A stretch of 64,000 nt of DNA from an uncultured Verrucomicrobiae bacterium (GTDB lineage Bacteria; Verrucomicrobiota; Verrucomicrobiia; Chthoniobacterales; Chthoniobacteraceae), in contig CAVYGI010000001.1 in NCBI GenBank assembly GCA_963767975.1, forward strand, positions 19,044-83,043. Direction: 5' to 3'. Within the stretch, counting starts at the first letter, position 1. Each line of letters opens with the position of its first letter. A program made the translations under genes and the position numbers. Below the pieces are notes generated by a model. The model was not told the origin of the DNA, searched no databases, and saw only the letters and a list, made by a program, of their open reading frames with translations. Shown piece after piece: positions 6,577 to 64,000 of the stretch.

Positions 6577-7197
6577 CTACAACTCGGCAACTTTGATGTT
6601 CCGATACTCGCACTTCATAGCCACGCCAGGGTGGATTTGGAAGCCGAGCGGCCCAGCGCCGGAGAATTTTGCATCCGTATATTCGGAAGCTTTTTGGCCA
6701 TTGATCCAGCAGGTGAAAGTATCACCTTTGGCTTCGATGCGGAAGGTATTCCACTCCCCTTCCGGTTTCATCAATCGCTGAGCTTCCTTGGCCTGTCCCG
6801 CCTCCGGGTAGCCGGGCTTGCCGCCCGTATAGAACGATCCGGACATATCGACTTTTAGACTGCCGGAGATGCCGAGTTGAAGTTGTAGATGAGGCTTCCG
6901 CATCTCCAGCCCGGTGTCTACCCCGCGTGGAGTGACGCCTTTCCAGCGCACGTCAAACTCAATGACAAAATCGCGGTAGTCCTTTTCTGTCCAAAGATAG
7001 TGCCCCTTCAGGCTGGAATCGTTCTCGCCGACCAGCACGCCATCTTCCACGCGCCAGAAGTTCTGCGCGCCTTCAGTCTTGAAATTTGCGAGATCCTTTC
7101 CGTTGAACAGCGGCTTGAGCGCGAGGTCTTCGGCTGGGCAAGCCCCTAGCGTAGAGAAAGAAATGATCAACGTGAGGACAATGGAGCGGAGATTCAT
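6577..7197 (-). CDS. DUF1080 (3-keto-disaccharide hydrolase-like) domain protein, secreted
   Basis: 206-aa ORF with a signal peptide. It has LFNGKDLANFK...NFWRVEDGVLVG...GPLGFQIH...EYRNIKV, the typical DUF1080 start and end pattern. Confidence 0.8.
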   Translation of the reverse strand: MNLRSIVLTLIISFSTLGACPAEDLALKPLFNGKDLANFKTEGAQNFWRVEDGVLVGENDSSLKGHYLWTEKDYRDFVIEFDVRWKGVTPRGVDTGLEMRKPHLQLQLGISGSLKVDMSGSFYTGGKPGYPEAGQAKEAQRLMKPEGEWNTFRIEAKGDTFTCWINGQKASEYTDAKFSGAGPLGFQIHPGVAMKCEYRNIKVAEL

Positions 7198-7267
7198 GGC
7201 GAGGAGGATTTAGGGGTTATAGTTTGAGCGTGCGAAGAGTGCGTAGTGGGAGTAGGAAGCTTCCGAC

Positions 7268-8344
7268 CTACTCGGCGCGATAACCGCGCCAGAGCCACAC
7301 CAGCGTGTCGGCCAGCGTGTGGTTGAATACTTTGCCGTCGCAGTGGCCAGTGGCTTTGCTGAAGACAAAGCGATGGTGGTAGCCTTTGGCGGTGAGGGCG
7401 GCTGAGGTTCGCCGTCCGGCCATGACCCAATTGTGGTAGGTCTCCTCCGAGTCTTTATTGCGCAGGTCATTCTCAGACACGTGGGTGAAGATCCGCAGAG
7501 GCTTCAGTTCGCTCTTTTCGATCAGCTTCATGCCGGAATGGAACTCCCAGGCGCCGAGGGGATACTTTGCCTCTTCCGGCGCGTCGTCGTCCTGCTGATC
7601 TACAAACGTGCCGGAGTAGGCGATGATGCGGCGGAACAAGTCAGGTCGCGACCAACCCATGATCAGCGCCGCAGCGCCGCCGGAGCTGCAGCCCATCACT
7701 GCATGGCCCCACGGATCTTTGGTGAAGGTCAGCTTGGGATAGGCGGCTTGCAGTTCGGCATTGGCCAGCACGGCGGGTAGTACTTCGTCGTGGATGAACC
7801 GCGCCAAGCGGTCGGACATGGTGTCGTACTCCAGACCACGTTGACTGTTCTTCCCATCGTTGCCGCCATTCTCGACTGCAATTGCAACGAAAGCAGGCAG
7901 CTTCCGCATCGGGTCTTTGGAAACAGTGAGGTTATCCAGCGCATGGCGGACCTTGTCCAAAGGCCCGGGTCCATCGTGAATGATGAGGAAGGGTGCTGGA
8001 GTGCCATCCTTGTAGGAGGCAGGGACGTAGACAAAGACTTTGCGCTCGGTGCGCACGGGCTTCTTGTCGGGTTCGAGCGTCGTATCATCACCGCGGAAGA
8101 TTTTGCTGTCCGCCAGCTTCATCGTAAACTGGAAGGACTTGCCCTTTGGATTACCGAGGTCGGTCAAATCCTTGTCGGTGGTGTATTCCGGCCCAACCGT
8201 GAATTCGCCGTCACCGTCCGAGGCCGGGTTGTCGGTTGAATTGTCAGCCGCATCGGATGGAAGCGCAGTGAGGCTGAGCCACGTGCCAAGCAGCAGTAGA
8301 AGGCGGAGGGAGCATCGCATGGGAGTCATATGCGAAAATTCCAC
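7268..8344 (-). CDS. Secreted esterase (alpha/beta hydrolase, esterase D/enterochelin-esterase-like)
   Basis: 358-aa ORF with a signal peptide and the G-x-S-x-G nucleophile elbow in VMGCSSGGAAALIMGW. An alternative start is ATG 8329. Confidence 0.7.
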   Translation of the reverse strand: MEFSHMTPMRCSLRLLLLLGTWLSLTALPSDAADNSTDNPASDGDGEFTVGPEYTTDKDLTDLGNPKGKSFQFTMKLADSKIFRGDDTTLEPDKKPVRTERKVFVYVPASYKDGTPAPFLIIHDGPGPLDKVRHALDNLTVSKDPMRKLPAFVAIAVENGGNDGKNSQRGLEYDTMSDRLARFIHDEVLPAVLANAELQAAYPKLTFTKDPWGHAVMGCSSGGAAALIMGWSRPDLFRRIIAYSGTFVDQQDDDAPEEAKYPLGAWEFHSGMKLIEKSELKPLRIFTHVSENDLRNKDSEETYHNWVMAGRRTSAALTAKGYHHRFVFSKATGHCDGKVFNHTLADTLVWLWRGYRAE

Positions 8345-8470
8345 GCGAGGAGCAATCCTGCGGTGAGGAGTATTTTCGGCCGCCTATTCCTCAAATAACT
8401 CCCGCCTCGTTTGCGGCCAGAACATGATTGGAAATGTCATGAATGCGGCGAGCGTTGTCACCCAAGCGAA

Positions 8471-9181
8471 ATGACTCGATTCTCTCCACCTGTCGGAAAT
8501 CCTCGAATCAAAGTAGCGGCTAGTTTCGAAGAGCTGCTAGCGACCTCTTTTTCCAACGGCATCAATGCGCTTTGCTGGCCGCGGAATCTGCCGGGCGACT
8601 TTGCGGAGGTGGCCACATTGCTGCGCGATGGTGAAGGAGTTGTCGCGGTCGATGAGGCTAGGCTTCGAGGCTTGCCGGCGAGCACATCGGGATGCGTAGC
8701 CATCGATTGCTTGTTGAACGACCTGCGCCTGCTCCGCGACCACGGTCGCGAACCTGTGCTGAACTGCATTTACAGTTATCCACGGGATGAAGAGCCGGGA
8801 CCTGTATCGACCGACGTCTTCTCCTTTCACGCCGACAGCGCGCCGGTCGAAACTGACACCTGGCTTTGCACGTATTTCGGCCCACCGAGCGAGGGTTTGC
8901 GAAATGAAGAGGCGCAGCGGCGGATCGAAGTCCCAGAGACGCGTGCAGAACTGCTCCGATTGTTCGGAGGTCGAGACGACGACGACTTCCGCTCGCACCT
9001 TGCGGAACATTGCTACGACTTGCACTACGCGGCCTCTCCGGGCGCTCAGCCTTTTTCTTTCGGCATCGGAAACCTCTGGCGCATCGCCGTGGACTGGCCC
9101 GGAAGCCTTGTCCCACCGTGCCTCCACCGCGCTCCAGAGAGCCTGCCTGGTCATCCGCCGCGCTTGTTGTTGATTAGCTGA
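8471..9181 (+). CDS. Hypothetical protein (possibly DUF1826 family)
   Basis: ORF 8411-9181 in the track starts at TTG. The first ATG is at 8471 (MTRFSPPVGN). The family call is from memory of the overall pattern only, with no catalytic motif recognised. Confidence 0.4.
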   Translation: MTRFSPPVGNPRIKVAASFEELLATSFSNGINALCWPRNLPGDFAEVATLLRDGEGVVAVDEARLRGLPASTSGCVAIDCLLNDLRLLRDHGREPVLNCIYSYPRDEEPGPVSTDVFSFHADSAPVETDTWLCTYFGPPSEGLRNEEAQRRIEVPETRAELLRLFGGRDDDDFRSHLAEHCYDLHYAASPGAQPFSFGIGNLWRIAVDWPGSLVPPCLHRAPESLPGHPPRLLLIS

Positions 9182-9309
9182 CCTCGCTGGCTGGAAATGC
9201 GTTGAGGCAACTTGGGGGACATTCGCGACCACCTCGCAATGCGTCGGCGCCCCTCGAGGGAAATGAATCGGGCAACCCCCGCATCGCAGGCAGCGACCCG
9301 GCAGCCCCG

Positions 9310-10056
9310 CTATTTCGCGGGCTGAAGGTGGCGCTCCAGCGCTGCGCCGATCTCCGTTTTGAACTGCGGTTTCAGAACGCAGCTCAGGTGGTCGGCGTCG
9401 GTAATGAGATTGACGCGCAAATCGGGGCGCAGCTTGAGCAGCGGCTCCACGCCGAGTTGGCGAGCCGGGTCGCGGTCGCCGACAATGATTTCGATCGGGA
9501 CGCGCAATTCTTTCATCGTCTCTGAGGGCACCGCGAATTCCGCAAAGCCGGCGAGCAGCGGGCTGAAGGTTTTAGCCCTCCGGTCACCGCCCGCGAGGCG
9601 CTGGAAAACCGCGCCGTCCTCAAACCAGCCCGCGCCGCCGAGCGTCGCCGAGCGGACGCGCTCCGGATGCAACGACGCGAATTTCAGCGAGATCATCGCG
9701 CCCATCGAGTAGCCGATGAGATGCGCGGATTTGAGATCGAGGTGATCCATCAGCCGCCCAACGTCCTCGACCATTTTGATCCCGTAAGCCTGCTCGCCGG
9801 ACGGTTTGTCGGACAGCCCGTGTCCGCGGCAATCGATGACGATCACCCGCGCCCGCTCGGCCAGTGCGGCGGGGATTCCGGCAAGCCCCCAATTCAAGAG
9901 ACCGTTTGCGAACAAGCCATGAATGAGGATCACCGGCTCGCCGCGCCCCTGCACCGTGTAGTGGATCTTCACGCCGTCCGAGTCGAAGTCATCCGCGCGC
10001 GCGCCGGCATGTGTGAGGCAAAGGAGGGCGGACGTGAGGAAAAGTAGCAAGCGCAT
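9310..10056 (-). CDS. Secreted alpha/beta-fold hydrolase
   Basis: 248-aa ORF with a signal peptide, VILIHGLFANG (oxyanion region) and GYSMGAMI (G-x-S-x-G). Confidence 0.8.
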   Translation of the reverse strand: MRLLLFLTSALLCLTHAGARADDFDSDGVKIHYTVQGRGEPVILIHGLFANGLLNWGLAGIPAALAERARVIVIDCRGHGLSDKPSGEQAYGIKMVEDVGRLMDHLDLKSAHLIGYSMGAMISLKFASLHPERVRSATLGGAGWFEDGAVFQRLAGGDRRAKTFSPLLAGFAEFAVPSETMKELRVPIEIIVGDRDPARQLGVEPLLKLRPDLRVNLITDADHLSCVLKPQFKTEIGAALERHLQPAK

Positions 10057-10220
10057 GAATTGAAAAGGTTGGAGGTAGCCAGGATTTCAAAATGCCATCG
10101 ATTCGCCAATCGGCGACCCGTGAAAGTGATGCCAGCATCAAGCGCACACGCGGATGGGCAGGCCCAGCATCGTCTTGTGCTCTCTGAAATTCCTGAGACA
10201 AAAGCACTCCCTTTCATTCC

Positions 10221-10973
10221 ATGAAGCTGCTCTCCCTCCTTGCGATCGCTTGCCTTCTCACGTCCGCTTCTTTCGCCGCCAATCCGCCCGCGATTCCTGG
10301 CGAACCCGTCGCGAAGAAAAAGGAACTGCTCTTTTCTGACGACTTTGAAAAAAGCCCGCTCGACCAGCGCTGGCACCGGGTCGTCGAAACCTTCGCCGTT
10401 GAAAACGGGACGCTGAAAGGGACGCAGACGCGCGACCAAAACATTCCGGCCACCGACGGGAAACGGGCGGTGACCGCACACGCTGCGGTCTACGGATTGG
10501 AGCTGCCGACGAAGGACAGCGTGGTCGAGGTGAAGATCCGGTTCGAAGGCTGCTCGATGATCGACGTGGAGTTCGACGACCGCGCTTTCACCGGTTCCCA
10601 CTACGGCCACCTCTGCCGGGCGCAGGTGCGGCTCGATAAAGTGACGATGGTCGACGAGCGCGACGGCAGCCAGAGCAATGCGCTGATCGAATTGCGCAAA
10701 GATGCGGCGAAAAACAAGGAGGAGATCGGAAAGCTGCTGGCAGCGCACAGCGCGACTTTCCCGGTCAGACTCGAGGCCGGAAAATGGTACACGTATGTCG
10801 TGGAAATCGCGGGGGATGAGATGCGCGCAAGCATCGACGGAACGCCGGTCGGATATTTAAAATCACCTGGCATCGGGCACGCGACGAAGTCGAAGATCGA
10901 ACTCGGCGTTGCCGGGAAGGACGGCTTCTTTGACGATATCAAGGTCTGGAACGCCGAGCCTGCCAAACCGTAA
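10221..10973 (+). CDS. Secreted protein, concanavalin-like/DUF1080-like jelly-roll suspected
   Basis: 250-aa ORF with a signal peptide (MKLLSLLAIACLLTSASFA). The ending, GVAGKDGFFDDIKVWN, resembles LamG/DUF1080-type proteins. The fold call is inference. Confidence 0.5.
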   Translation: MKLLSLLAIACLLTSASFAANPPAIPGEPVAKKKELLFSDDFEKSPLDQRWHRVVETFAVENGTLKGTQTRDQNIPATDGKRAVTAHAAVYGLELPTKDSVVEVKIRFEGCSMIDVEFDDRAFTGSHYGHLCRAQVRLDKVTMVDERDGSQSNALIELRKDAAKNKEEIGKLLAAHSATFPVRLEAGKWYTYVVEIAGDEMRASIDGTPVGYLKSPGIGHATKSKIELGVAGKDGFFDDIKVWNAEPAKP

Positions 10974-11009
10974 ACAACCCTAATTCTCCCACCACCAACC
11001 TTACTACCC

Positions 11010-11945
11010 ATGTCACTACAAACTCGCCGCCAATTCGTCGGGCTCGCGCTCTCCGCGCTGCCCGCCACCGCTCTGCTTTCCGCCTCCGGTCGCCTCGGCG
11101 CAGCAGACGCACCCGCCAGGCCGGACTCAAAATTCAACGGGGTCCAAATCGGTCTGAACGTCCCTTACAGCTTCGCCAAAGGCGACATGAGCGGGGAGGA
11201 AATCCTCAAAAATTGCGTGCAGCTCGGGCTGAGCGCGGTCGAGCTGCGGACGCAGCCGGTGGAAGCATTTCTTGGAGTGTCAAAGGAGCTGACCGCGGGC
11301 AAAAAGACGCCGGAAATGGTCGAGCAATTGCGTTCCTGGCGGACCAGTGTCTCGCTGGACCGAGCCAAGGAATTCCGCCAGCAATACGAGACCGCCGGCG
11401 TGCTGATCGAGGTCGTGAAAGTGGACGGCATTTTCACGATGAAGGACGACGAGATCGACTACGCCTTCGCGCTGGCCAAGGCGCTCGGCGGACGCGCCAT
11501 TTCCACGGAAATTTCCCACAAAGAGGAAGAGCTGAAGCGGCTCGGGTCTTTCGCCGACAAACATCAGCTGATGGTCGGCTACCACGGCCACGCCTCGACC
11601 AAACCGGAGGATTGGGAAAAAGCCTTCGCACTCGCGAAATTCAACGGTGCCAACGTGGACCTTGGCCATTTCGTCGCGGGCAACAACACCTCGCCGGTCC
11701 CGTTCATTAAGCAATACCACGACCGCGTGACGCACGTGCATTTGAAGGACCGGAAGTTCAACAATGGTCCAAACACGCCGTTCGGAGAAGGTGACACGCC
11801 GATCGCGGAAGTGCTCCGGCTCATCCGCGACAACAAGTGGAACATCCAGGCGACGATCGAGTTTGAGTATAAAATCCCCGAAGGCTCCGACCGCATGAAG
11901 GAGCTGGCACGCGCGATCCAGTTCTGCCGCGAAGCACTCGCCTGA
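11010..11945 (+). CDS. Sugar phosphate isomerase/epimerase (xylose isomerase-like TIM barrel), Tat-exported
   Basis: 311-aa ORF with the Tat motif TRRQFVGLAL, then GLSAVELR...GYHGH...VDLGHF...HVHLKD, typical of the AP endonuclease 2/xylose isomerase-like family. Confidence 0.75.
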   Translation: MSLQTRRQFVGLALSALPATALLSASGRLGAADAPARPDSKFNGVQIGLNVPYSFAKGDMSGEEILKNCVQLGLSAVELRTQPVEAFLGVSKELTAGKKTPEMVEQLRSWRTSVSLDRAKEFRQQYETAGVLIEVVKVDGIFTMKDDEIDYAFALAKALGGRAISTEISHKEEELKRLGSFADKHQLMVGYHGHASTKPEDWEKAFALAKFNGANVDLGHFVAGNNTSPVPFIKQYHDRVTHVHLKDRKFNNGPNTPFGEGDTPIAEVLRLIRDNKWNIQATIEFEYKIPEGSDRMKELARAIQFCREALA

Positions 11946-38015: not shown

Positions 38016-41000
38016 ATGAAATCGCTGGCTTCCCCTCCTCGTTCTGTCCGCGCTCAGCTGCCGTCTGCTGGCGGCGGAGGCGCCGTTGCCGGAGAAGGTT
38101 GATTTCAACCGCGACGTCCGGCCGATCCTGTCGGATCTCTGCTACAAGTGCCACGGCTTCGACGACAAGGCGCGGGAAGCGGGACGCCGGCTCGATACCG
38201 CGGCCGGTGCGCTGGCGGAAAAGGACGGTGTGCGCGCCATCGTGCCCGGCAAATTGGCGGAGAGCGATGTGCATGTCCGCATTCACTCGACGGACCGGGA
38301 CGAAGCAATGCCGCCGCTGAAGTCCGGCAAAAAATTGTCCGACCGGCAGAAGGCGGTCCTTGATCGCTGGATCGAACAGGGCGCGGCCTACGCGCAGCAT
38401 TGGGCGTTTCAACCAATCCAACGCGCGCCGCTGCCGGACGCCAAAGCTCACCCGGCGAACCCCATCGATGCCTTCATCCAGGCGCGGCTGGAAAAGGAGG
38501 GGCTCACACCTTCGCCGGAGGCAGACTCCTACACGCTTTCCCGGCGGCTTTACCTCGACCTGATCGGGCTACCCCCGACGCCGGAGGAGGCGGACCGCTT
38601 TGTCGCGGCGAGCAGAGTGGATCGAAATCAAGCCGTCGAAAAGCTCGTCGATCGATCTGCTCGCTTCGCCGCAATACGGCGAACGTTGGGCGCGCCGCTG
38701 GCTCGACCTCGCGCGCTATGCCGACACGAATGGCTACGAGAAAGATCGTCCGCGCAGCATCTGGCCGTTTCGGGATTGGGTGATCAGGCGCTGAACGCCG
38801 ATATGCCTTTCGATCAATTCACGATCGAACAGCTCGCCGGGGACATGCTGCCGCAGCCGACATCCGAGCAGGTGATCGCCACCGGATTTCACCGCAATAC
38901 GATGCTCAACGAAGAAGGCGGCATCGACCCGCTGGAGTTCCGCTTTCTGGCGATGACGGATCGCGTCGCCACCACGGGCACGACCTGGCTGGGGCTCACG
39001 GTCGGCTGCGCGCAGTGCCACACGCACAAATACGACCCGATCCTTCACCGCGAATATTACCAGACTCATGGCGTTTCTCGATAACGCCGACGAGCCGACT
39101 TATCCCATCCGCCCGGCGAACTACGCGGAGACGGTCGCGAAAGTGGAAGCAAGATCGCGACGCTCACCGCCGAGCTGCCAAAGCGCTTCCCAGCGGAAGC
39201 CGCCAAGTGGGAAGTCGCCCAGCGCGTGACGGTGACGACGGCCAGCGGTGCCAGGGCGGAGGCGCTGCCGGATGGCTCGTGGCGGTTCGAGGGACCGGGC
39301 GCACCGGAGGAGACGCTCACTGTCACCATCGAAACGGCGGCGCGGCCGTGGAGGCCATCCGGCTCGAAACTCTGCCGGACCCGAAGCTGCCCAGCGGCGG
39401 ACCCGGGCGCTCGTCGTCGTCGAATTTCGTGCTGACCGACATCGCGATCACCGCCGCTCCGCTCTCGAATCCACGCGCCGGGCAGCCGGTGAAGATCAGC
39501 TCGGTGAAAGCGGATTTTTCGCAGGATAAATATCCGATCGAACACGCGATCGATGCCGACCCGAAGACCGGCTGGGGCATCGCGGGAAAGCCATCTCGGC
39601 ACGCCACATTCCGCGGAGTTCACCTTTGCTCAGCCGGTCCACGTTCCCGGCGGCGCGCGGCTGACCGTCCAGCTCGCGCAGAACTTCGGCCAGCACCACA
39701 CGTTCGCCCATTTCCGCCTCAGCCTCGCGGGCAAAACGTCAGGCGATTCCGCCACGCTCGAGAATCGCCGCCGAGAGGCCTTGGACCGCGCTTTCGCCGA
39801 CTGGCTGGCGCGCGAATCGGCGGAAGCAATCCGCTGGACGCCGCTTCGACCCGCGGCCGCGACCTCAAACCTACCGATGCTGACCGTGCTCGACGATCTT
39901 TCCATCTTGGCCAGTGGCGATCAGACGAAGACGGACACCTACGAGCTGACCTTCCGCCGCCCGCCGAAAGGGATCACCGCCATCCGCGTGGAGGCGTTGC
40001 CGGATGAGCGCCTGCCGAAGGGCGGGCCGGGACGCGTTTACTACGAAGGGTCCCGCGGGCGATTTCACGATGACGAACTTCACCGCGGAAGCCGATGGGC
40101 AGCCGTGGAAATTCGGAGCCGCCGCGCAGAGTTTCGCGTCCGGGCAGTTCACCGCGAGCGCCGCCATCGACGACAATTTGCAGAGCGGCTGGTCCATCGA
40201 CGGCGGCCAGGGCAAAGCGCACAGTGCCGTCTTCAAGTTCGCCACCCCGCTGGCCGGCGCGCAGGCGCTGAAGCTCTCCATGCAGTTCGCGCGGCACTAT
40301 TCGGCGGACCTCGGCCGCTTCCGGATTTCCGTGACGGACGACCCGCGCGCAGATTGTCACGCGCAACACCGCGCCGCCGGAAATCGAGCGCTGCTGCTCG
40401 TGCCGGAGGCGAAACGCACCGCGGCTGACCGCCGGGCGCTTTTCGAGCACTTCCTCACTCGTCACTCCGGAACTCGCGGACGCGCGCAGGCCGAGATCGC
40501 GAAGCTCGCGTCAATCCCTGACGCGCCTCCGACGACGACTCTCGTGATGAGCGAGCGCCCGCCGGACCATCCACGCCCGACCTTTCTGCACAAGCGCGGC
40601 GAGTTCCTCCAGCCCGGCGAGGAGGTCAGCGCCGGCGTCCCCTCCGTTCTGCCGCCGCTCCCGCCGGGCGTCGCGGCGAACCGCCTCAGCCTTCGCCCGC
40701 TGGCTCGTCTCCCCGGAGAATCCGCTCACCGCGCGCGTCACCGTCAATCGCCAGTGGGCCATCCTTTTCGGCCGCGGCATCGTCAAGACGACCGAGGACT
40801 TCGGCCTCCAGGGCTCGCCGCCGACGCACCCCGAGCTGCTCGACTGGCTGGCCGTCGGAATTCATCCGGCAGGGCTGGTCTCTGAAAAAGCTCCACCGGC
40901 TCATCGTCACCAGCGCCACCTACCGGCAGAGCTCCGTGATCAGCCCGGCGATGCTGGCCCGCGACCCGGAAAATGAGCTGCTCGCCCGCGGCCCGCGCGG

Positions 41001-41604
41001 CCGGCTCGAGGCCGAGCAGGTGCGCGATGCGGCGCTCTCCGCCGCCGGTCTGCTCTCGCTCGAAAATGGGCGGCCCGAGCGTCTATCCGCCGCAGCCCGA
41101 GGGCGTCGGCGACACCGCCTACGGCGGCTACGAAATGGACCGCCGAGCAGCGGTGAGGATCGCTATCGCCGCGGGCTCTACACCTTCGCCAAACGGACCG
41201 CGCCCTACGCCATGTTCAACACCTTCGATGCGCCCGACCGGCGAGGCCTGCGTCGCCCGCCGGGAGGTTTCCAACAACCCGCTGCAGGCCCTCACCCTGC
41301 TCAATGACGTCGTCTTCCTCGAAGCCGCCCAGGCTCTGGGCAAAACCCTCGCCGCGCATCCCGGGACCGGTGGAACAGCGCATCGCCGTCCTCTTCCGCC
41401 GCGTGCCTCACCCGCCCACCGGCGCCGGAGGAAATGGCCCCGCTCGCCGACTTCTTCACGCGGCAGAGAGCCCGCTTCGAGCAGGACGACGCCAGCGCGC
41501 AGAAAGTCGCCGGCGAAGCCAAGGCCGGGCTCGCCGAGCGCGCCGCCTGGACCGCCCTCGCCCGCGCCATCTTCAATCTCGACGAAGCCATCACCCGGAG
41601 CTGA
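38016..41604 (+). pseudogene. PSCyt (Planctomycete cytochrome c) / DUF1549 / DUF1553 protein, many frameshifts
   Basis: ATG at 38016 (MKSLAS), with an immediate frame change in a C-run, then LLVLSALSCRLLAAEAPLPEKVDFNRDVRPILSDLCYKCHG (CxxCH). DUF1549 part: NPIDAFIQARLEKEGLTPSPEAD...[10 protein letters not shown] and [20 protein letters not shown]1553 part: CAQCHTHKYDPI. Later segments lie in all three frames. It ends AIFNLDEAITRS* at TGA 41602-41604. Confidence 0.8.
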
Positions 41605-41607
41605 CCC

Positions 41608-43057
<1,450 letters not shown>

Positions 43058-54926: not shown

Positions 54927-55000
54927 CGGGCTGTGGCTCAGCTTGGTAGAGCGCCTCGTTCGGGTCGAGGAGGTCCAGGGTTCGAATCCCTGCAGCCCGA
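54927..55000 (+). tRNA. tRNA-Pro (anticodon CGG)
   Basis: Hand fold: CGGGCTG/TG/GCTC-AGCTTGGTA-GAGC/G/CCTCG-TTCGGGT-CGAGG/AGGTC/CAGGG-TTCGAAT-CCCTG/CAGCCCG/A. The acceptor stem is perfect and the C1:G72 pair is typical of tRNA-Pro. Confidence 0.9.
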
Positions 55001-55166
55001 CTCTCCCCAAACTCACTGGATGAGCTGCGAAAATAGTTCTCTTCCTTGAAACTGTGTTTCTGCTCCTCGGAGCTACGGACCTAACGACAGAATTTGACCT
55101 TTGAAGCTTCGGGCGATCTCGCTGATTGGGGGCGACAGCTTCAAACGCAGGCACGGAAACTGGCCG

Positions 55167-57486
<2,320 letters not shown>

Positions 57487-57521
57487 TTCATCTGACTCCG
57501 CCCCTTCTTCAGCAAACAGAA

Positions 57522-58844
57522 TTACAACGCGGTGATAGCCACAGTTGCCGACGCCCACGAATTGCGCGGAATGCTGTGCGAAATTGTAGTCTGCGGAACC
57601 GCAACACAACGATTTGCTGGGTCTGGAATCCAGTAGATAACGTTTGCTGTCGTCGGGTTGAAATTCTCCAAGACAGCCAAGACATAGCTATTCGAGTGAA
57701 GGCTCGCTTGTTGCCACTCACGATTGGTCAACGACGGCGAACACAGCCCAAGCGAGCTTTTCACTTCGACGTATCGTTTCCTGGAACCTTTTTGAGCGAA
57801 GATGTCATAACCGAGTTGTTGGCGGGAAACGACATAAGCCAGCCACCCATCCGAAATCAAAGCGGACGCAACAAACTGTTCAGCCTCCCAACCCGTGTTG
57901 ATTGCCGGAGGCGGCGTTGGCGTGCCTGATAGAACAGGGGAAGTTGGAATAGTTGTTGTCCGCGGACGGCGTGCTGACGTTCGCTGCGCTATTGTCGGGG
58001 GCACCGGCAACTGTGACGGCAGTTGCGCTCCCAGCGATGCACTTGCCGGCCAACTAGAAGACTGCGTTAGCCGCGCGTTGAGAGGATGCTGGATTGAATC
58101 ATCGAAGAACGCCGAGAATTCTGGCTGCGAAAAATTAAAATCAGCCATGAAGTCGGCCAGTCGCACGCTAGTTCGTGTCCCGAGCACCAGCCCAGGGTCC
58201 GCATCGTGATAAAGCGCGACGATCAGCGGTAAGATGGGAATTCTAACCTGCGACGGGGCTACGTATGGCTCAAAGTTTGATATGTTCTGGAGATCGGTTA
58301 CGGCGTATCCACTTCCGCCCGGATCGATTCGCAACCACTTCCTGTGACTCTCACCTCGGTAGCCAGCGCCGGAGGGACAAAGCGAACATCGTGCGTCAAT
58401 CAGTGTTCCCGCAACCGGAGTCTGCAAGTGGCGACACTGGCTTCGGTCTTGGTTTAAGAAAGTTGGACTGGAGAGGTCTGCTGGTGGTGCGTAGCAGCCG
58501 ATTCCTTTTTGAAGATTGAAATTGTTCCGCCAAGTATTCTGCGCTCCCGAGTTGCCCGGCCCAACCAAGCCGGTCCTTGCAAGGAAATTCCCTTCAAAAA
58601 GAGACAGAACACACTGGTTCGGCGGGCGCGACAACTTTGCATACAAATCATCAAGGAGCGCCTGAAGAACTTCAGTCGTGATGAACGATCCTGCATACAT
58701 ACTCGGCAGACTGTTTTGGAAGAACTTCAGGCCAAGGAAAATTTGGATGAAGCGACCCTTAAATGCTTGTCCAATAGTTTGCTTGTGTGCCCTCAAACAT
58801 CCGAGAGCGTCTTGAAACAACGTTGGATCGCTGACCGGTATCAT
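57522..58844 (-). CDS. Uncharacterised protein: N-terminal Cys-cluster domain, Pro/Thr-rich linker, C-terminal PD-(D/E)XK-like (DUF3883-like) domain; candidate restriction endonuclease
   Basis: Intact 440-aa ORF. Four Cys lie within aa 117-156 (GIGCY...SQCRH...ARCSLCPSG). The linker covers aa ~262-317 (PSQLPVPPTIAQRTSARRPRTTTIPTSPVLSGTPTPPP). The C-terminus has GYDIFAQKGSRKRYVEVKSS...LTNREW...YVLAVL, a D...E-x-K nuclease pattern. The region is AT-richer than its flanks. Confidence 0.6.
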   Translation of the reverse strand: MIPVSDPTLFQDALGCLRAHKQTIGQAFKGRFIQIFLGLKFFQNSLPSMYAGSFITTEVLQALLDDLYAKLSRPPNQCVLSLFEGNFLARTGLVGPGNSGAQNTWRNNFNLQKGIGCYAPPADLSSPTFLNQDRSQCRHLQTPVAGTLIDARCSLCPSGAGYRGESHRKWLRIDPGGSGYAVTDLQNISNFEPYVAPSQVRIPILPLIVALYHDADPGLVLGTRTSVRLADFMADFNFSQPEFSAFFDDSIQHPLNARLTQSSSWPASASLGAQLPSQLPVPPTIAQRTSARRPRTTTIPTSPVLSGTPTPPPAINTGWEAEQFVASALISDGWLAYVVSRQQLGYDIFAQKGSRKRYVEVKSSLGLCSPSLTNREWQQASLHSNSYVLAVLENFNPTTANVIYWIPDPANRCVAVPQTTISHSIPRNSWASATVAITAL

Positions 58845-58850
58845 CGGGAC

Positions 58851-61739
58851 CTAAACTCTGCCCACGAAGGAGCGAAGATACTCTCCTGAGGATATTTCAC
58901 CGCGCATGAGCTGTTGAAACGGATTTTGCGGCGGAGACGCATATCCTTTGTGGGAGCCGTTTTCCCCGGGCCTCAATGAAGGAAGGTCAGACAGAGCATC
59001 CTCCACGGAAACAGCTTTCGTGACATGTCCGAAGAGCGAAGGCTCTTGTTCCATGCCAGTGATCGCCGCTGGCGGGGAGACATTCCACCCTGCTGGTAAA
59101 CTCACCATAATAAGGCGCTTTCGGCGCTGCGGCACGGCGTATCGTTCGGCATTCAGAACCCAAGGGACGAGGGGGTTGTCGAGAATCTGCAACTCACGTC
59201 GAATCATCTCGAAGACCGAACCGCCTTCCATGTTGAGCAACCCTGTCACGTTCTCGAAAACGAAGCCATCCGGGCGGATGGTTTCCACCAACGCCTTGAA
59301 CTCCTTGAACAGATGGTTGCGCTCGTCGCCAAGCGATCGGCAGTTGCCCGCGGTGGAAAACCCCTGACACGGTGGGCCGCCGATGACGAGCAGCGGCACA
59401 CCATCGCGGCGCTCGCGGGTGATGATTTCCACGAGGCGGCGGAAAATATGCGGCTCGCGAATGTCACCCGTGACCGCGACGGGATGAACGTTGCGTCGGT
59501 AGCTTTCGAGGAAATCGTTCTCAATGTCGTTTGCCACGATGGGTTCCCAACCTGCCCATCGGAAGCCCAGCGAGAGGCCGCCGGCTCCGCTGAACAAATC
59601 CACGTATTGCCCGACCACGGGCAAAGTGCGCGCGATTTGAAACGCCAGCAGCGGCGGCACTGCATTCCCGATTTGTTTCTGCACCGAGAGATGAGCGCCG
59701 ACAAAAGCAAATCGGTCGGGGAATGACTGGAGCCGTGCGGCCTCGCGCTCGGAAAGAACGCGGTGTTGCCCTCCCGCGTAGTCGTAGTGCAAGTGGCAGC
59801 CGTTACCGGGGCGGTTGAAGTAGGTGTTGATCGTGTAGGCAGGACGCGCGGGGTGCAGGCGGCCGTAATAAGTCGAACGGCTGCCTTCGCCAGCGGCAAA
59901 GCTGACCCGGATTTGCTCTAGGCGCTTCGATGGCACCTCGTGCGGGATATTCTTCCAGTTGCCGCCCGGCGGCACGGCAATGGCAACGTCTAGGTCGAGC
60001 TTGCTGAGTTTCGCTGAGTAGTGATTTGGGATTCTCGCCTCCATCCCGTGAAGTGCGGGTTGGGTTGTCTCGCAACTTCCATTGTCAGCGGAGACAACAT
60101 CCTGAGCGTCGGAATCGACGTCGAAAAGTCTCAGCATTTCGGCGCGGAAATTCTCCGGCAACCGGTCAAAGAATCCGAGTTGCATGATGAACTCCTCACG
60201 CGTCAGGCCGTAGGCGCGCGCGACCGCCACCTCGACCGCCGCTTCCGCCCCCGCTTCGCCGTCCAACACACGCCGGGTCAACGCAGAAAGCGTGCGCACC
60301 GTGCGAGCATCGTCGAACCGTGGCACGCGCACCTCTCGCACGCTGCCGAGCGAGACGTGTCCAGTGCCGAGCTTGGAGCGGAGCTGAAACTCAAATGGGA
60401 GTGAATTGATGATGCCAAGCAGCGCGTGAAGCTTGTCCATGTCGCCGTCTTTGAAATACCCGACGTGCAAAGAATTCCCGGTGACGCAGCCCGCGGGCAG
60501 CAATGTGGCGATCATCCGGCGCACTTGCGAGCGACGCGAAACGTCGCGCCATGTCAGCCGTGCATGAGCAGCGGAGATGGGCAGTGCGCGGCTCGCATCG
60601 CTCACAAACTCTGTGAACGGATTGAGCACTCCATAACGCGACACTGCGCGCCCCTTCACAAATGGAATCGTGCCCGTAGCGGCGGTGAACCGCCGGTAGC
60701 CCGTCTCATCCCACTCACGCCCGAGCCAGAGCGCATCCGGTTCGTCGCCGCAGAGGTCATCGAGGCGCGGGAGCGGAGACAGGCGGAGAAGGAAACGCAT
60801 TTCGTCCGCCGCGAGGTCGAGCGGAACGGCGTAGCCAAGCCGTTCCAACTCGGATCGGCTCAACTCAAGCCGACTTTCGCCAATCAATCTGCGCTCTGCA
60901 TCGAAGCGCGAAAGCAGCGGTGCAAATTCGGCATCGGGGGTGCGCTCGAAAATCGCGGCGGCACACGTTTGATCGACACCGTCAAAAAGCCGCGCCTCAG
61001 CCGGGTAAGCGAGTAGCCGCCGAAGTGCGGCGTCGTGAAGCAACCACCGGCGGAATCGGGCGCTTACTTGATCGCTGAACAACGAGCTTGGGAGAATGAT
61101 GCCGCACCATCCGCCGGGGCGGAGGAGGCGGATCGAAAGTTCGAGGCCGCATCGGGAGAGATTCGTTCCCCAACCGGAAAACTTTTTCTCCGGCTGCGAC
61201 TGGGGCAGCAGCCGAGCGAGCCGCTCATCGTAATCTCGCAGCGCGGCGACATAGGCAGCGCGTGCTTCTGGCGCGAGTTGCTCGATCTCCCGCCGGTCGG
61301 GCTTGAGTGCCTCCCACGGCGGATTGGTCAGCAACAGATCATACTCACCAGCTCCATCGCGGAGAAAAGTGTCTCCGCTCTCGGCTTCAATCTCCACGCG
61401 CAATTGCAGCTTTTGCGCGCAAGCCGCGACGAGTTCCCGCGCCAACGCCACAGCCTCTGCATCGTTGTCCCAAAGTGAAATGTGAAAGCACGCACCGGCG
61501 AATTTCGGCGAAGAGGCCGAAGCATGGAGAAACGCAACGATCAATCGGCCGTCGCCGCAGAAGGGATCGACGACTCGAACCTCGCGCCCGGCCATTGACG
61601 GGACGTCGTCGAGCAACACCTCACCGATTCGCTCCGCGAGAAACTCCGGCGTGTAAAAACGTCCGTTCGCGCGAGCAATAAGGGCTTTTCCACCCACCCG
61701 CATCTGAGCGTGGGCTGAGAGATGTTCGTTATGCTGCAT
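58851..61739 (-). CDS. Fused DNA methyltransferase: N-terminal gamma-class N6-adenine MTase plus C-terminal circularly permuted C5-cytosine MTase
   Basis: Intact 962-aa ORF. m6A part: FYTPEFLA, VVDPFCGDGR (motif I, 61568-61548) and LLLTNPPW (motif IV, 61328-61314). m5C part: ARLQSFPDRF...QIGNAVPP (motifs IX-X, 59675-59652) lies before VDLFSGAGG (motif I, 59603-59577). Then GGPPCQGFS (motif IV, 59381-59355), FENV and PQRRKRLIMV (motif VIII). Confidence 0.85.
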   Translation of the reverse strand: MQHNEHLSAHAQMRVGGKALIARANGRFYTPEFLAERIGEVLLDDVPSMAGREVRVVDPFCGDGRLIVAFLHASASSPKFAGACFHISLWDNDAEAVALARELVAACAQKLQLRVEIEAESGDTFLRDGAGEYDLLLTNPPWEALKPDRREIEQLAPEARAAYVAALRDYDERLARLLPQSQPEKKFSGWGTNLSRCGLELSIRLLRPGGWCGIILPSSLFSDQVSARFRRWLLHDAALRRLLAYPAEARLFDGVDQTCAAAIFERTPDAEFAPLLSRFDAERRLIGESRLELSRSELERLGYAVPLDLAADEMRFLLRLSPLPRLDDLCGDEPDALWLGREWDETGYRRFTAATGTIPFVKGRAVSRYGVLNPFTEFVSDASRALPISAAHARLTWRDVSRRSQVRRMIATLLPAGCVTGNSLHVGYFKDGDMDKLHALLGIINSLPFEFQLRSKLGTGHVSLGSVREVRVPRFDDARTVRTLSALTRRVLDGEAGAEAAVEVAVARAYGLTREEFIMQLGFFDRLPENFRAEMLRLFDVDSDAQDVVSADNGSCETTQPALHGMEARIPNHYSAKLSKLDLDVAIAVPPGGNWKNIPHEVPSKRLEQIRVSFAAGEGSRSTYYGRLHPARPAYTINTYFNRPGNGCHLHYDYAGGQHRVLSEREAARLQSFPDRFAFVGAHLSVQKQIGNAVPPLLAFQIARTLPVVGQYVDLFSGAGGLSLGFRWAGWEPIVANDIENDFLESYRRNVHPVAVTGDIREPHIFRRLVEIITRERRDGVPLLVIGGPPCQGFSTAGNCRSLGDERNHLFKEFKALVETIRPDGFVFENVTGLLNMEGGSVFEMIRRELQILDNPLVPWVLNAERYAVPQRRKRLIMVSLPAGWNVSPPAAITGMEQEPSLFGHVTKAVSVEDALSDLPSLRPGENGSHKGYASPPQNPFQQLMRGEISSGEYLRSFVGRV

Positions 61740-61745
61740 GCGTGT

Positions 61746-63021
61746 TCAGTCTGCCGACTTAAAGGATTTAAAACAAGTTGAGCAGGTTAATTGATGAGGG
61801 CCTGCCGGATTTTGCCCCTCGCCGCCGGAGCCGCTGCTCATGGAGCCATTGGCGAGGAGGAGCCCCATGCTGCCCTGCGGGGCGAGGTGATGGAGCATGT
61901 GCTGGATCCAGGCGAAGTTCGCGTTGCCCCGTCTGCTCGCCCGTTTACCAGCCGCCGCTATTCCCCTCCGCCTCCTCGGCGGGGTGCCGTAGCGCCAGCG
62001 CGGGTCGCCCTCCAGCTTCGCGTCCCACCATTCGCTGATGTTGAACGGCGGATTGGCCATCACGTAGTCGGCGCGCAGGTCGGGGTGCTGGTCGCTGGTG
62101 AAGGAGTTGGCCGGTTCCTTGCCGAAATTGAAGTCGATGCCGCGGATGGCCATGTTCATCGCGGCGAGGCGCCAGGTGGTGGGATTGCTCTCCTGCCCAT
62201 AGACGGAGAGGTTGCCCAGCTTGCCGCCGTGCTCTTCGATGAAGCGCTCGCTCTGGACGAAGAATCCGCCGGAGCCCATGGCGGGATCGTAAACGCGCCC
62301 CTGGTAGGGCTCGAGCATCTCGACGATGAGCGAGACGATGGATTTCGGCGTGAAATACTGGCCACCCTTTTTCCCCTCCGCGAGGGCGAACTGGCCGAGG
62401 AAGTATTCGTAAACGTGGCCGAGGATGTCCTTCGCGTGCAGGTCGGCGTGCTCGAAGGGGATGGTGGCGATGAGGTCGATGAGGCTGCTGAGATTCGCCG
62501 GGTCGAGCTGGAGCTGGGTGTAGGTCTTGTTGAGGACGCCCTTGAGCTTCGGGTTCTCCTTCTCGACGGCATCGAGCGCGTCGTCGATGAGCTTGCCGGT
62601 GGAGGTGATCTTGTAGGTGGTGGTCTTGCCGTTCTTGACCGTGATCTCGGAGCCGGGCGGGAGCTTGGCGCTGTCCTGCAGCGTCTTCCACCGGGCGAGC
62701 GCGGGCACCCAGAAGACGTTCTTCTCGATGTAGTAGTCGCGCTCTTCCAGCTCGGCGCGGATGGCTTCGAGGTATTCGGCGCTGCCTTCGCCGCCGTAGT
62801 CGGCGGGATCGAGGAAGTAGTCGCTCTTCGGATCGCGAAGCTGGGCCTCGATCTCCCGCTGCCGCAGTGGCGAAGGAGTCGGAGACGTATTTGAGGAAGA
62901 TCAGGCCGAGGACGGCGTGCTTATAGACGGCGGCGTCGAGATTGGCGCGGAGCCGGTCGGCGGCGGACCAGAGCTTCTTGTCGAGGTCGCGGAGGAACTG
63001 CTGGGAGGTCTGCTCAGCCAT
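61746..63021 (-). pseudogene. hsdM: Type I restriction-modification M subunit remnant: frameshifted and 3'-truncated
   Basis: ATG at 63021 ([50 protein letters not shown]). A frame change follows. ORF 61746-62708 has [26 protein letters not shown] and GNANFAWIQHML...LLLANGSMSS. Homology (GKIRQALIN in a shifted frame) stops near 61790, where roughly the last fifth of HsdM should follow. No hsdS is present downstream. Confidence 0.8.
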
Positions 63022-63188
63022 CGGTGAGCATTCATTGCCGGAAGCAATACGCATTAGGCGAGCCGGTTTTCATGCAGAGCGGCTCGGCTAGCCGCCATCT
63101 CTAACCCTCCAAATCCCAGACCCGGCTATGCAATTCGACCGCGTTTGGGGGGCGCCCTTGTCAGAGGGCGCGACAGGCCACGGGCCTC

Positions 63189-63491
63189 TTACTTGCCGCC
63201 CTTCGCAGTTGTGAGCGCAATAAGGTCACTCGCAGGGATGTCGGCTAATGTCTCAAGGGAGAGCTCCAGCACTCGGGTGAACAGGAGCAGCTCGTAATCA
63301 GTGATGCAGCGGCGCCGCAGTTCGATTTTCGTGATGACAGTTCGCTCCACGTCCCAGCCAAGCAGTTGCAGTTTCCGCGCGACATCCGCCTGCGACCACC
63401 CCTTTGCCTCGCGAATCTGCCGGAGCATGACGCCAAGCATGTTTCGCTGCGGTGGGATTTTGGTTCGCGTCGGACGTGCCACTTTTGGCAC
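63189..63491 (-). CDS. XRE-family helix-turn-helix transcriptional regulator
   Basis: 100-aa ORF. LGVMLRQIREAKGWSQADVARKLQLLGWDVERTVITKIELRRR is a canonical Cro/C1 HTH. Confidence 0.8.
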   Translation of the reverse strand: MPKVARPTRTKIPPQRNMLGVMLRQIREAKGWSQADVARKLQLLGWDVERTVITKIELRRRCITDYELLLFTRVLELSLETLADIPASDLIALTTAKGGK

Positions 63492-63579: not shown

Positions 63580-64000
63580 ATGTCGCCGGCGAACCTTCCC
63601 CCTGTCCTAAACAACGACGAGGCCCGTCTGCTGCGGTGTTTCCATCTCCTTTCAGGGGATGAAAAAGATCGGCTCTTGGTGGCGGCTGGCAGGAGCGCCA
63701 TTGCCGCATGTGATGCCGAAGTGCGGAAGGCATTGGCCAAAGCAAAATCGGCCCAAGAGCGTGCCGAGTCAGACGCCGAACGGCAGAAGGCGATTGATGA
63801 AGCCGAATGGGCCCTCTCGGAGGCGTATGATGATTTCTACTGTTGTCATCTACCCTCCTTGAGCTTCCCGACGTGGGCGTCGCTGATGATTGATTTCCTC
63901 GGCAGCGGTGGGCTGTGCGAGGCGATCCGCGAACACTTCGATGGGTGCTTGGGCGACGCTCTTCTGGGGTCTGTTGCATCGGTCGAGGGATTCGCACTGC
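63580..64000 (+). CDS. Hypothetical protein, partial (continues past the window end)
   Basis: Own translation from ATG 63580: MSPANLPPVLNNDEARLLRCFHLLSGDEKDRLLVAAGRSAIAACDAEVRKALAKAKSAQERAE... It is open to 64000 and not in the ORF track. It is divergent from the XRE gene. Confidence 0.45.
   Translation, partial: MSPANLPPVLNNDEARLLRCFHLLSGDEKDRLLVAAGRSAIAACDAEVRKALAKAKSAQERAESDAERQKAIDEAEWALSEAYDDFYCCHLPSLSFPTWASLMIDFLGSGGLCEAIREHFDGCLGDALLGSVASVEGFAL

Follow-up and report, generated by a model that had tools for sequence, protein, structure and literature searches.

A putative restriction endonuclease with an undescribed N-terminal domain, encoded beside an Eco31I-like fused methyltransferase in an uncultured Verrucomicrobiae bacterium

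The window analyzed here, a 64-kb stretch of DNA (64,000 nucleotides) from an uncultured Verrucomicrobiae bacterium, carries on its minus strand two adjacent genes that make up a predicted restriction-modification (R-M) cassette at positions 57522-61739. The first gene (58851..61739) encodes a fused DNA methyltransferase of 962 amino acids (aa). Its stop codon lies 6 nt before the ATG of the second gene (57522..58844), an open reading frame (ORF) of 440 codons plus a stop that is predicted to encode a restriction endonuclease. This ORF is a real gene and not a chance reading frame, because its product has at least 234 homologues (E≤0.001) and the ratio of nonsynonymous to synonymous substitution (dN/dS) against its closest relative, in a Verrucomicrobiae metagenome-assembled genome (MAG), is 0.064. 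The homologues among the matches listed are mostly full-length, at about 420-450 aa, and 54-95% identical. Both domains of the protein are under purifying selection (dN/dS 0.042 for the N-terminal and 0.076 for the C-terminal domain) and the gene is functional. Its GC content is 53%, against a window mean of 61%. The 440-aa protein is very probably the restriction endonuclease of a Type IIS-like R-M cassette, which has two genes here and three elsewhere.

A sequence-only reading of this DNA described an ORF of 440 aa in three parts: an N-terminal region that could not be assigned, a low-complexity linker and a DUF3883/NOV-C type nuclease tail. The ORF, its length and the four cysteines singled out in that reading (C117, C137, C153 and C156, with a CxxC, at nt 58377-58496) all match the recomputed positions; the protein has cysteines at 16, 78, 117, 137, 153, 156, 368 and 413. 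The three-part layout is borne out by Pfam and by an AlphaFold2 model of the full-length protein. The model was computed with 40 homologues as input and has a mean predicted local distance difference test score (pLDDT) of 82. It consists of two well-folded parts with a segment of low pLDDT (<50, aa 273-306) between them. The counts of residue conservation and linker length given below are for 40 family members.

The C-terminal domain (aa 318-440; 57522..57893, minus strand) is identified by Pfam, Foldseek and residue conservation as a NOV_C/DUF3883 nuclease domain of the PD-(D/E)XK superfamily. The Pfam match to NOV_C (PF13020) covers aa 325-398 and scores 39.9 bits (E=4.4e-10), above the gathering cut-off of 22.1. 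The catalytic candidates E322, D347, E360 and K362 show the E...D...E-x-K arrangement of the superfamily. D347 and K362 are each present in 40/40 members and E322 in 38/40, and residue 360 is E in 31 and D in 9. The domain is modeled with a pLDDT of about 70-90. In Foldseek searches of the PDB the best matches are the archaeal Hjc resolvases 2eo0, 1gef, 1ob8 and 2wcw (E down to 7e-5, template modeling score on the target 0.6-0.72), followed by EcoRV, HincII and SPARDA nuclease domains. Matches in BFVD are viral resolvases, PD-(D/E)XK proteins and a NOV_C protein. The predicted structure of the domain is a restriction-endonuclease-like alpha/beta fold of Hjc type, so the nuclease tail proposed from sequence is upheld both by a Pfam match above cut-off and by the modeled fold. 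Steczkiewicz et al. (PMC3424549) placed DUF3883 in the PD-(D/E)XK superfamily, and this domain is the catalytic one of YenY4I, an active endonuclease by experiment (PMC6765204).

The linker (aa 263-317; 57894..58058, minus strand) is rich in P, S, T, A and R, has a pLDDT below 50 at aa 273-306 and varies among the 40 homologues; these features mark it as disordered. The 56 residues of aa 262-317 include 12 P, 9 S, 9 T, 6 A and 4 R, which confirms the low-complexity composition reported for this segment. Its variable part is 28-49 aa long and A/P/S/T/R-rich throughout the homologues. The last 15 or so linker residues (P303..W319) are conserved as P-x-L-x-G-T-x-x-x-P-P-x-x-N-x-G-W and lead into the nuclease. 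Because the tether is long and disordered, the offset of the cut is not predictable.

The N-terminal domain (aa 1-262; 58059..58844, minus strand), hereafter the N-domain, is an undescribed putative DNA-recognition domain. It is defined by its lack of matches in family libraries, by a signature shared with distant relatives and by a pLDDT of about 80-98 in the full-length model. There is no match to aa 1-262 in Pfam, even at E≤10, and none in NCBIfam or PHROGs. Searches of PDB sequences, with phmmer for the single sequence and also with a profile, give no match, and PADLOC matches are confined to the C-terminal region, the widest covering aa 277-422. Matches of the protein or of the N-domain profile to AdoMet decarboxylase (E=0.39) and to KICSTOR (E=0.05-0.8) among PDB sequences are at chance level. 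With the full-length model, the 50 PDB matches listed by Foldseek (reaching about E=0.03) and the 50 listed for BFVD all fall in the C-terminal domain. A modest model of the N-domain by itself (pLDDT 69) has no PDB match below E=5. The statement that aa 1-260 belong to no recognizable family therefore holds in Pfam, NCBIfam, PHROGs, and PDB sequence and fold searches.

The N-domain carries the signature N103-x-W-R-N...Q112-x-G-x-x-C117, R134..C137 and C153. In the superfamily alignment the common form is N-x-W-R-[ND]-x-x-x-x-Q-x-G-x-x-C-x-A, then R-x-x-C and a third invariant Cys, followed by a conserved helical tail (R-[IV]-P...P...A-L-Y, D-F, F-D, N). The cluster C117/C137/C153/C156 (58377..58496, minus strand) is a putative structural zinc site on the basis of its conservation. 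C117, C137 and C153 are present in 40/40 family members and C156 in 39/40. The first three are invariant in all distant subfamilies as well, where the fourth Cys is shifted or absent; three of the four Cys noticed in the sequence-only reading thus prove to be conserved well beyond this family. Since three Cys are invariant and the fourth position is variable, a structural site of Cys3-X type is plausible, and the cluster probably binds zinc.

The 962-aa protein matches TIGR02987 and PF00145 and is the predicted cognate methyltransferase. Its first half (about aa 1-540; 60120-61739, minus strand) carries an NPPW motif and would make N6-methyladenine (m6A). Its second half (about aa 569-962; 58851-60035, minus strand) carries PCQ and ENV motifs and would make 5-methylcytosine (m5C). 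All three motifs are intact. The match of the m6A half to TIGR02987, the Alw26I/Eco31I/Esp3I family, spans profile positions 2-518 of 523 (E=5e-100) and scores 335.6 bits, just below the cut-off of 353.5; the m5C half matches PF00145 with E=4e-51. Motif IX of the m5C half (RVLSEREAARLQSFPD) begins at aa 660, before motif IV (PCQ) and motif VI (ENV). This half is, as judged from its sequence, a circularly permuted cytosine-5 (C5) methyltransferase of the M2.Eco31I type. The permuted order, with the target recognition domain (TRD) and motifs IX-X before motifs I-VIII, is that of M.Alw26I, M2.Eco31I, M.Esp3I, M2.BsaI and M.BsmBI, and the TRD of such enzymes precedes motif IX (PMC5944983).

Sequences of Eco31I were taken from Escherichia coli Nissle 1917, which was reached through a distant blastn match of the m5C gene; the Eco31I genes were not found in the two regions of the E. 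coli EC958 chromosome that were read. The m5C half and M2.Eco31I share 55% identity over 392 aa (full length); between the m6A half and M1.Eco31I the figure is 34% over 525 aa. In the segment before motif IX, which corresponds to the TRD, identity to M2.Eco31I is 71%, and it is 69% to the family methylases of both Xanthomonas and Aeromonas. The two halves also differ in their divergence from the closest relative. Synonymous divergence (dS) is about 1.6 in the m6A half (60060-61739), where aa identity is 78%, and 0.4-0.5 in the m5C half and the endonuclease, where it is 93-95%. The higher dS of the m6A segment suggests that it is mosaic and may have been exchanged by recombination with another lineage.

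The pairing of this endonuclease with the two methylases is conserved across genomes. In Xanthomonas campestris, Aeromonas caviae and the Verrucomicrobiae MAG the homologue lies directly downstream of m6A and C5 methylases, which are either separate or fused. A scan with one genome per species, in which neighbors were identified by tblastn, gave 26 loci. These come from Beta-, Gamma- and Alphaproteobacteria, Acidobacteria, Verrucomicrobia, Planctomycetes, Bacteroidetes (Flavobacteriales), one cyanobacterium and one Thermoplasmata archaeon. The order m6A, m5C, endonuclease is intact and adjacent in 19/26, and in another 3/26 the contig stops within the adjoining m5C gene. One locus (L030) is pseudogenized, one (L032) is cut just upstream, and in one (L027) the methylases are 3 kb away on the opposite strand. 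A conserved gene order across phyla is the signature of a mobile R-M cassette, and from this order the 440-aa protein is likely to be the endonuclease. A tblastn search for phage and plasmid copies found no phage copy and a single plasmid copy, in Roseomonas.

The N-domain also occurs in other fusions. A profile of the domain, run without a word filter against 1.84 billion representative proteins, finds it in 94 clusters; it is rare. Apart from the family of about 430 aa, the clusters include proteins of about 550 aa (P0176 and P0184) that combine it with a C-terminal HNH_2 domain. Proteins of 630-668 aa (P0181, P0183, P0186, P0188 and P0210) combine it with a McrB-like AAA_5 GTPase. Proteins of 464-485 aa (P0185, P0191 and P0196) have no Pfam match; at least P0185 and P0196 carry 'GYDL...FEVKTW', a second PD-(D/E)XK-like motif. 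The neighbors of several of these genes are again methylases. The P0176 gene overlaps the end of a C5 methylase gene, the gene of the metagenomic relative P0185 (locus L037) is convergent with a C5 methylase gene and is preceded by a gene for an HhH-GPD glycosylase, and the P0188 gene sits between an N6_N4 methylase gene and a McrC gene. The C5 methylases beside P0176 and P0185 are permuted and Eco31I-M2-like, with 43% and 42% identity, respectively, to the m5C half of the window. The N-domain thus holds the position of the reader in four architectures built on nucleases or motors, and a DNA methylase is nearly always its neighbor; for this reason it is best explained as a sequence-recognition module that would be sensitive to methylation.

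Two side observations concern these relatives. In the McrB-like fusions the N-domain stands in place of the usual DNA-binding domain, and the P0188 locus has an LlaJI-like R-M architecture with a new reader. The Roseomonas mucosa plasmid pTT14-9 (CP099480.1, 14.6 kb; locus L036) encodes a more distant N-domain protein, at 43% identity, in the apparent gene order vsr, 550-aa hypothetical, C5 methylase, N-domain gene; some N-domain systems therefore also carry a mismatch-repair gene, vsr in L036 and the HhH-GPD glycosylase gene in L037.

These architectures bear on two other functions that the 440-aa protein might have. It might be a modification-dependent (Type IV-like) nuclease, in which the N-domain would read a methylated base, DUF3883 would cut foreign DNA that is modified, and the methylase would have a separate or antagonistic function. 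DUF3883 is the catalytic domain in the modification-dependent enzymes YenY4I and McaZI (PMC6765204), and the McrB-like fusions have McrC partners; classical McrBC is methylation-dependent. The gene is, however, 6 nt from the m6A and m5C methylases and is co-inherited with them in most loci and many phyla, so that the host would be killed by a reader of these marks. A methylase also adjoins the McrB-like fusion, as it does in LlaJI, which restricts unmethylated DNA (PMC1459862), and Pfam searches of the protein find no reader of PUA, SRA or DUF3427 type. We consider a Type IV-like function highly unlikely.

Alternatively, the protein might resemble Vsr and nick the T:G mismatches that arise by deamination of 5mC at the methylated site. 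Such a role would fit the resemblance of the cutting domain to Hjc, a structure-specific nuclease, and the nuclease-type N-domain proteins with readable loci do adjoin methylases of the same permuted m5C clade. Yet some of these loci already hold a mismatch enzyme, namely the vsr gene of the Roseomonas plasmid and the glycosylase gene of L037. Restriction enzymes, unlike repair enzymes, typically show the kind of exchange seen here, with the N-domain moving among HNH, PD-(D/E)XK and McrBC-type effectors, and the family is scattered over unrelated phyla in the manner of mobile R-M cassettes. A repair function is most unlikely.

As a restriction system the cassette would work as follows. The target of the 962-aa enzyme would be asymmetric and methylated on both strands: the m6A half would modify an adenine on one of them, and the circularly permuted m5C half a cytosine, at C5, on the other. 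The N-domain, probably held together by its Cys3-X zinc site, would bind the target when it is unmethylated. The disordered tether of about 40-55 residues would join the N-domain to the Hjc-like PD-(D/E)XK domain with E322, D347, E360 and K362. Because this domain has a single active site, it would need to pair with a second copy in order to cut both strands, and the pair would make a double-strand break near the site, as FokI does. The analysis shows the division into domains, the fold and motif of the nuclease, the conserved operon, the kinship of the methylases and purifying selection; the target and its recognition by the N-domain, the bound zinc, dimerization and the cut position are inferred.

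The probable target is indicated by the methylase. Eco31I recognizes GGTCTC, with m6A on GAGACC and m5C on GGTCTC, and genes of ST131 identical to those of Nissle 1917 are equated with Eco31I (PMC4659465). Because the TRD of the m5C half is 71% identical to that of M2.Eco31I, a target with a GTCTC core is somewhat favored.

Several observations weigh against the interpretation given so far. Database names for the family are solely 'DUF3883/NO VEIN domain-containing' or 'hypothetical', and the literature on DUF3883/NOV_C with Type IIS, and on GTCTC/GAGAC methylome motifs, yielded no account of it. The N-domain is not markedly basic (isoelectric point 7.6 here, 5.6-9.1 in the family), it models less well alone than in the full-length protein, and, as it has no structural neighbor, its binding to DNA is deduced from context alone. 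Two loci lack the expected neighbors: L029 has no methylases within 7 kb of the gene, and the gene for P0191, which is preceded by a small helix-turn-helix (HTH) gene, has no DNA methylase within 6 kb. The cassette lies within a decayed type I locus, so that its present-day activity in this genome is putative. Finally, neither GTCTC, GGTCTC, CGTCTC nor their flanked variants are clearly avoided in the 64-kb window, a comparison with little power; for GTCTC the z-score is -1.9 and the rank 40/512, which is uninformative at this size.

The last of these points also fits another reading, in which the protein is a restriction endonuclease but its target is not GTCTC-like, or the cut falls inside the site or at a variable distance, so that it is not a classical Type IIS enzyme with a fixed offset. 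The permuted C5 clade includes M.BssHII, which is outside the Alw26I/Eco31I/Esp3I group (PMC5944983). The m6A half is just 34% identical to M1.Eco31I and scores below the TIGR02987 cut-off, and a disordered tether of 40-55 residues is no rigid ruler. Against this, the TRD identity to M2.Eco31I equals the values within the family, and paired m6A and m5C methylation is the hallmark of the GTCTC group (PMC4659465, PMC5944983). A different target or a variable cut is a real possibility, if a lesser one. We offer a further proposal tentatively and with slightly less than even confidence. The N-domain may be a new, probably zinc-stabilized DNA-recognition fold that reads an unmethylated GTCTC-type or related site and is portable across four effectors (DUF3883, a second PD-(D/E)XK, HNH and McrBC). 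In this family it may have displaced the HNH endonuclease of the Eco31I/BsaI/BsmBI systems while the methylases stayed, and its tether may give a cut geometry unlike that of the known short-distance cutters.

The cassette is flanked by the remnants of a type I system. An hsdM remnant (61746..63054, minus strand) matches HsdM_N and N6_Mtase (profile positions 2-192 of 311) in two overlapping frames; it is frameshifted and has lost its C-terminal third. An hsdR remnant (55167..57609, minus strand) lies on the other side, recognized by Pfam in two frames. It is without the N-terminal nuclease domain and has a frameshift in the SWI2/SNF2 region: SWI2_SNF2 profile positions 17-79 are in one frame, and positions 90-219, T1R_D3 and T1RH-like_C are in the other. 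No hsdS is present around the cassette. The cassette appears to have taken the place of the stretch from the 3' end of hsdM through hsdS to the 5' end of hsdR.

The closest relative shares this setting in part. Window positions 57267-61733 match positions 7112-11590 of locus L005 of the Verrucomicrobiae MAG (L005/L007) at 82% DNA identity, a match that spans the cassette and runs some 255 bp into the hsdR remnant. The MAG keeps no more than traces of about 67 aa of hsdR and about 28 aa of hsdM, and all other flanks differ. Since the two genomes share the cassette and traces of the same hsdR and hsdM, the insertion into the type I locus looks ancestral, predating their split, and the decay differs between them.

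Immediately upstream of the hsdM remnant, positions 63189-63491 (minus strand) encode a 100-aa HTH_31/HTH_3 (Xre-type) protein, which could regulate the old type I locus, or a genomic island, as a controller or in the manner of an antitoxin. A tRNA-Pro (CGG) gene at 54927-55001, on the plus strand, is separated from the end of the hsdR remnant by about 165 bp. A tRNA gene of this kind is a typical island boundary; the island would run beyond the end of the window at 64000. Elsewhere in the window, positions 40001-42000 form a local GC peak (0.70 against a mean of 0.61) with negative GC skew.

Type IIS R-M systems, DUF3883 nucleases and non-homologous endonucleases that share one type of methylase are all known ideas, and the general principles of R-M biology are unchanged by this system. 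What is new is the endonuclease family, its undescribed recognition domain and the replacement of the HNH enzyme in the Eco31I/BsaI/BsmBI group. The system would be a clean natural example of an endonuclease swapped within a conserved methylation module. Golden Gate assembly relies above all on enzymes that read GTCTC-type sites (BsaI/Eco31I and BsmBI/Esp3I). In a non-homologous endonuclease that goes with the same methylases, such a site would be read in a second, independent way, and the cut offset or star activity might differ from those of the known enzymes. The N-domain, which is not in Pfam or the PDB and occurs in four architectures, is a defined target for structural biology. Several hundred proteins now named 'DUF3883', 'NO VEIN' or 'hypothetical' could be renamed putative restriction endonucleases.

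Among known systems, Eco31I, Alw26I and Esp3I (BsaI, BsmBI, BsmAI) have the same methylation module, in which an adenine methylase akin to TIGR02987 goes with a permuted C5 methylase, either as two proteins or as one; the genes are adjacent. Their endonuclease is different. R.Eco31I is an HNH enzyme of the RE_Alw26IDE family (PF09665), which it matches with E=4e-188, and at its residues 294-341 Pfam shows weak similarity, under the cut-offs, to HNH (E=0.0026) and HNH_5 (E=0.0007). The window protein is unrelated to it, with no RE_Alw26IDE or HNH match in Pfam at E≤10 and no HNH motif. Homology between the N-domain and R.Eco31I was considered and ruled out (BLASTP of the two whole proteins E=0.58; hhalign probability 0.05% for the N-domain profile). 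When a 22-sequence RE_Alw26IDE profile is used instead, the hhalign probability is 0.3% with the N-domain profile and 1.6% with that of the full-length protein. The RE_Alw26IDE family is also by far the commoner one, with at least 2093 clusters among the candidates scored at E≤1e-10, against at least 234 homologues here at the looser E≤0.001. Going by these sequence comparisons, the methylases here are of Eco31I type, and the endonuclease that accompanies them is non-homologous.

YenY4I and McaZI share with the window protein a C-terminal DUF3883 PD-(D/E)XK catalytic domain, whose activity has been shown for YenY4I (PMC6765204). They carry PUA or DUF3427 readers of modified cytosine, whereas the window protein has a different N-domain and is encoded in an operon with methylases that would be protective. 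Archaeal Hjc is the closest structural match of the C-terminal domain and has the E...D...E-x-K motif in common with it, at a sequence identity of 14-18%. Hjc is a stand-alone protein of about 120-140 aa that recognizes DNA structure, while the domain in the window is the tethered effector of a larger enzyme. LlaJI (PMC1459862) is paralleled by the distant relatives in which the N-domain is joined to a McrB-like GTPase and McrC and a methylase are adjacent; the window protein has neither an NTPase nor a McrC partner.

The cassette has two features of a Type IIS system: the endonuclease gene adjoins a gene for predicted methylation of both strands (the asymmetric target being inferred from homology to M1 and M2.Eco31I), and its product has separate predicted domains for recognition and cleavage. 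In these respects it resembles FokI, which has an N-terminal recognition part, a linker and a C-terminal, non-specific PD-(D/E)XK cleavage domain with a single active site, together with methylation of both strands of an asymmetric site. The parts themselves differ: the window protein has a DUF3883/Hjc-like cleavage domain, a long and disordered linker, and a putative recognition domain that is Cys-rich and unrelated. It matches no FokI family in Pfam, and the 50 PDB fold matches listed include no chain of FokI. It is analogous to FokI in layout only. The sequence-only reading had described just such a FokI-like layout built from different parts, and that description is strengthened by context it did not use, the conserved methylase operon and the exchange of effectors on the N-domain.

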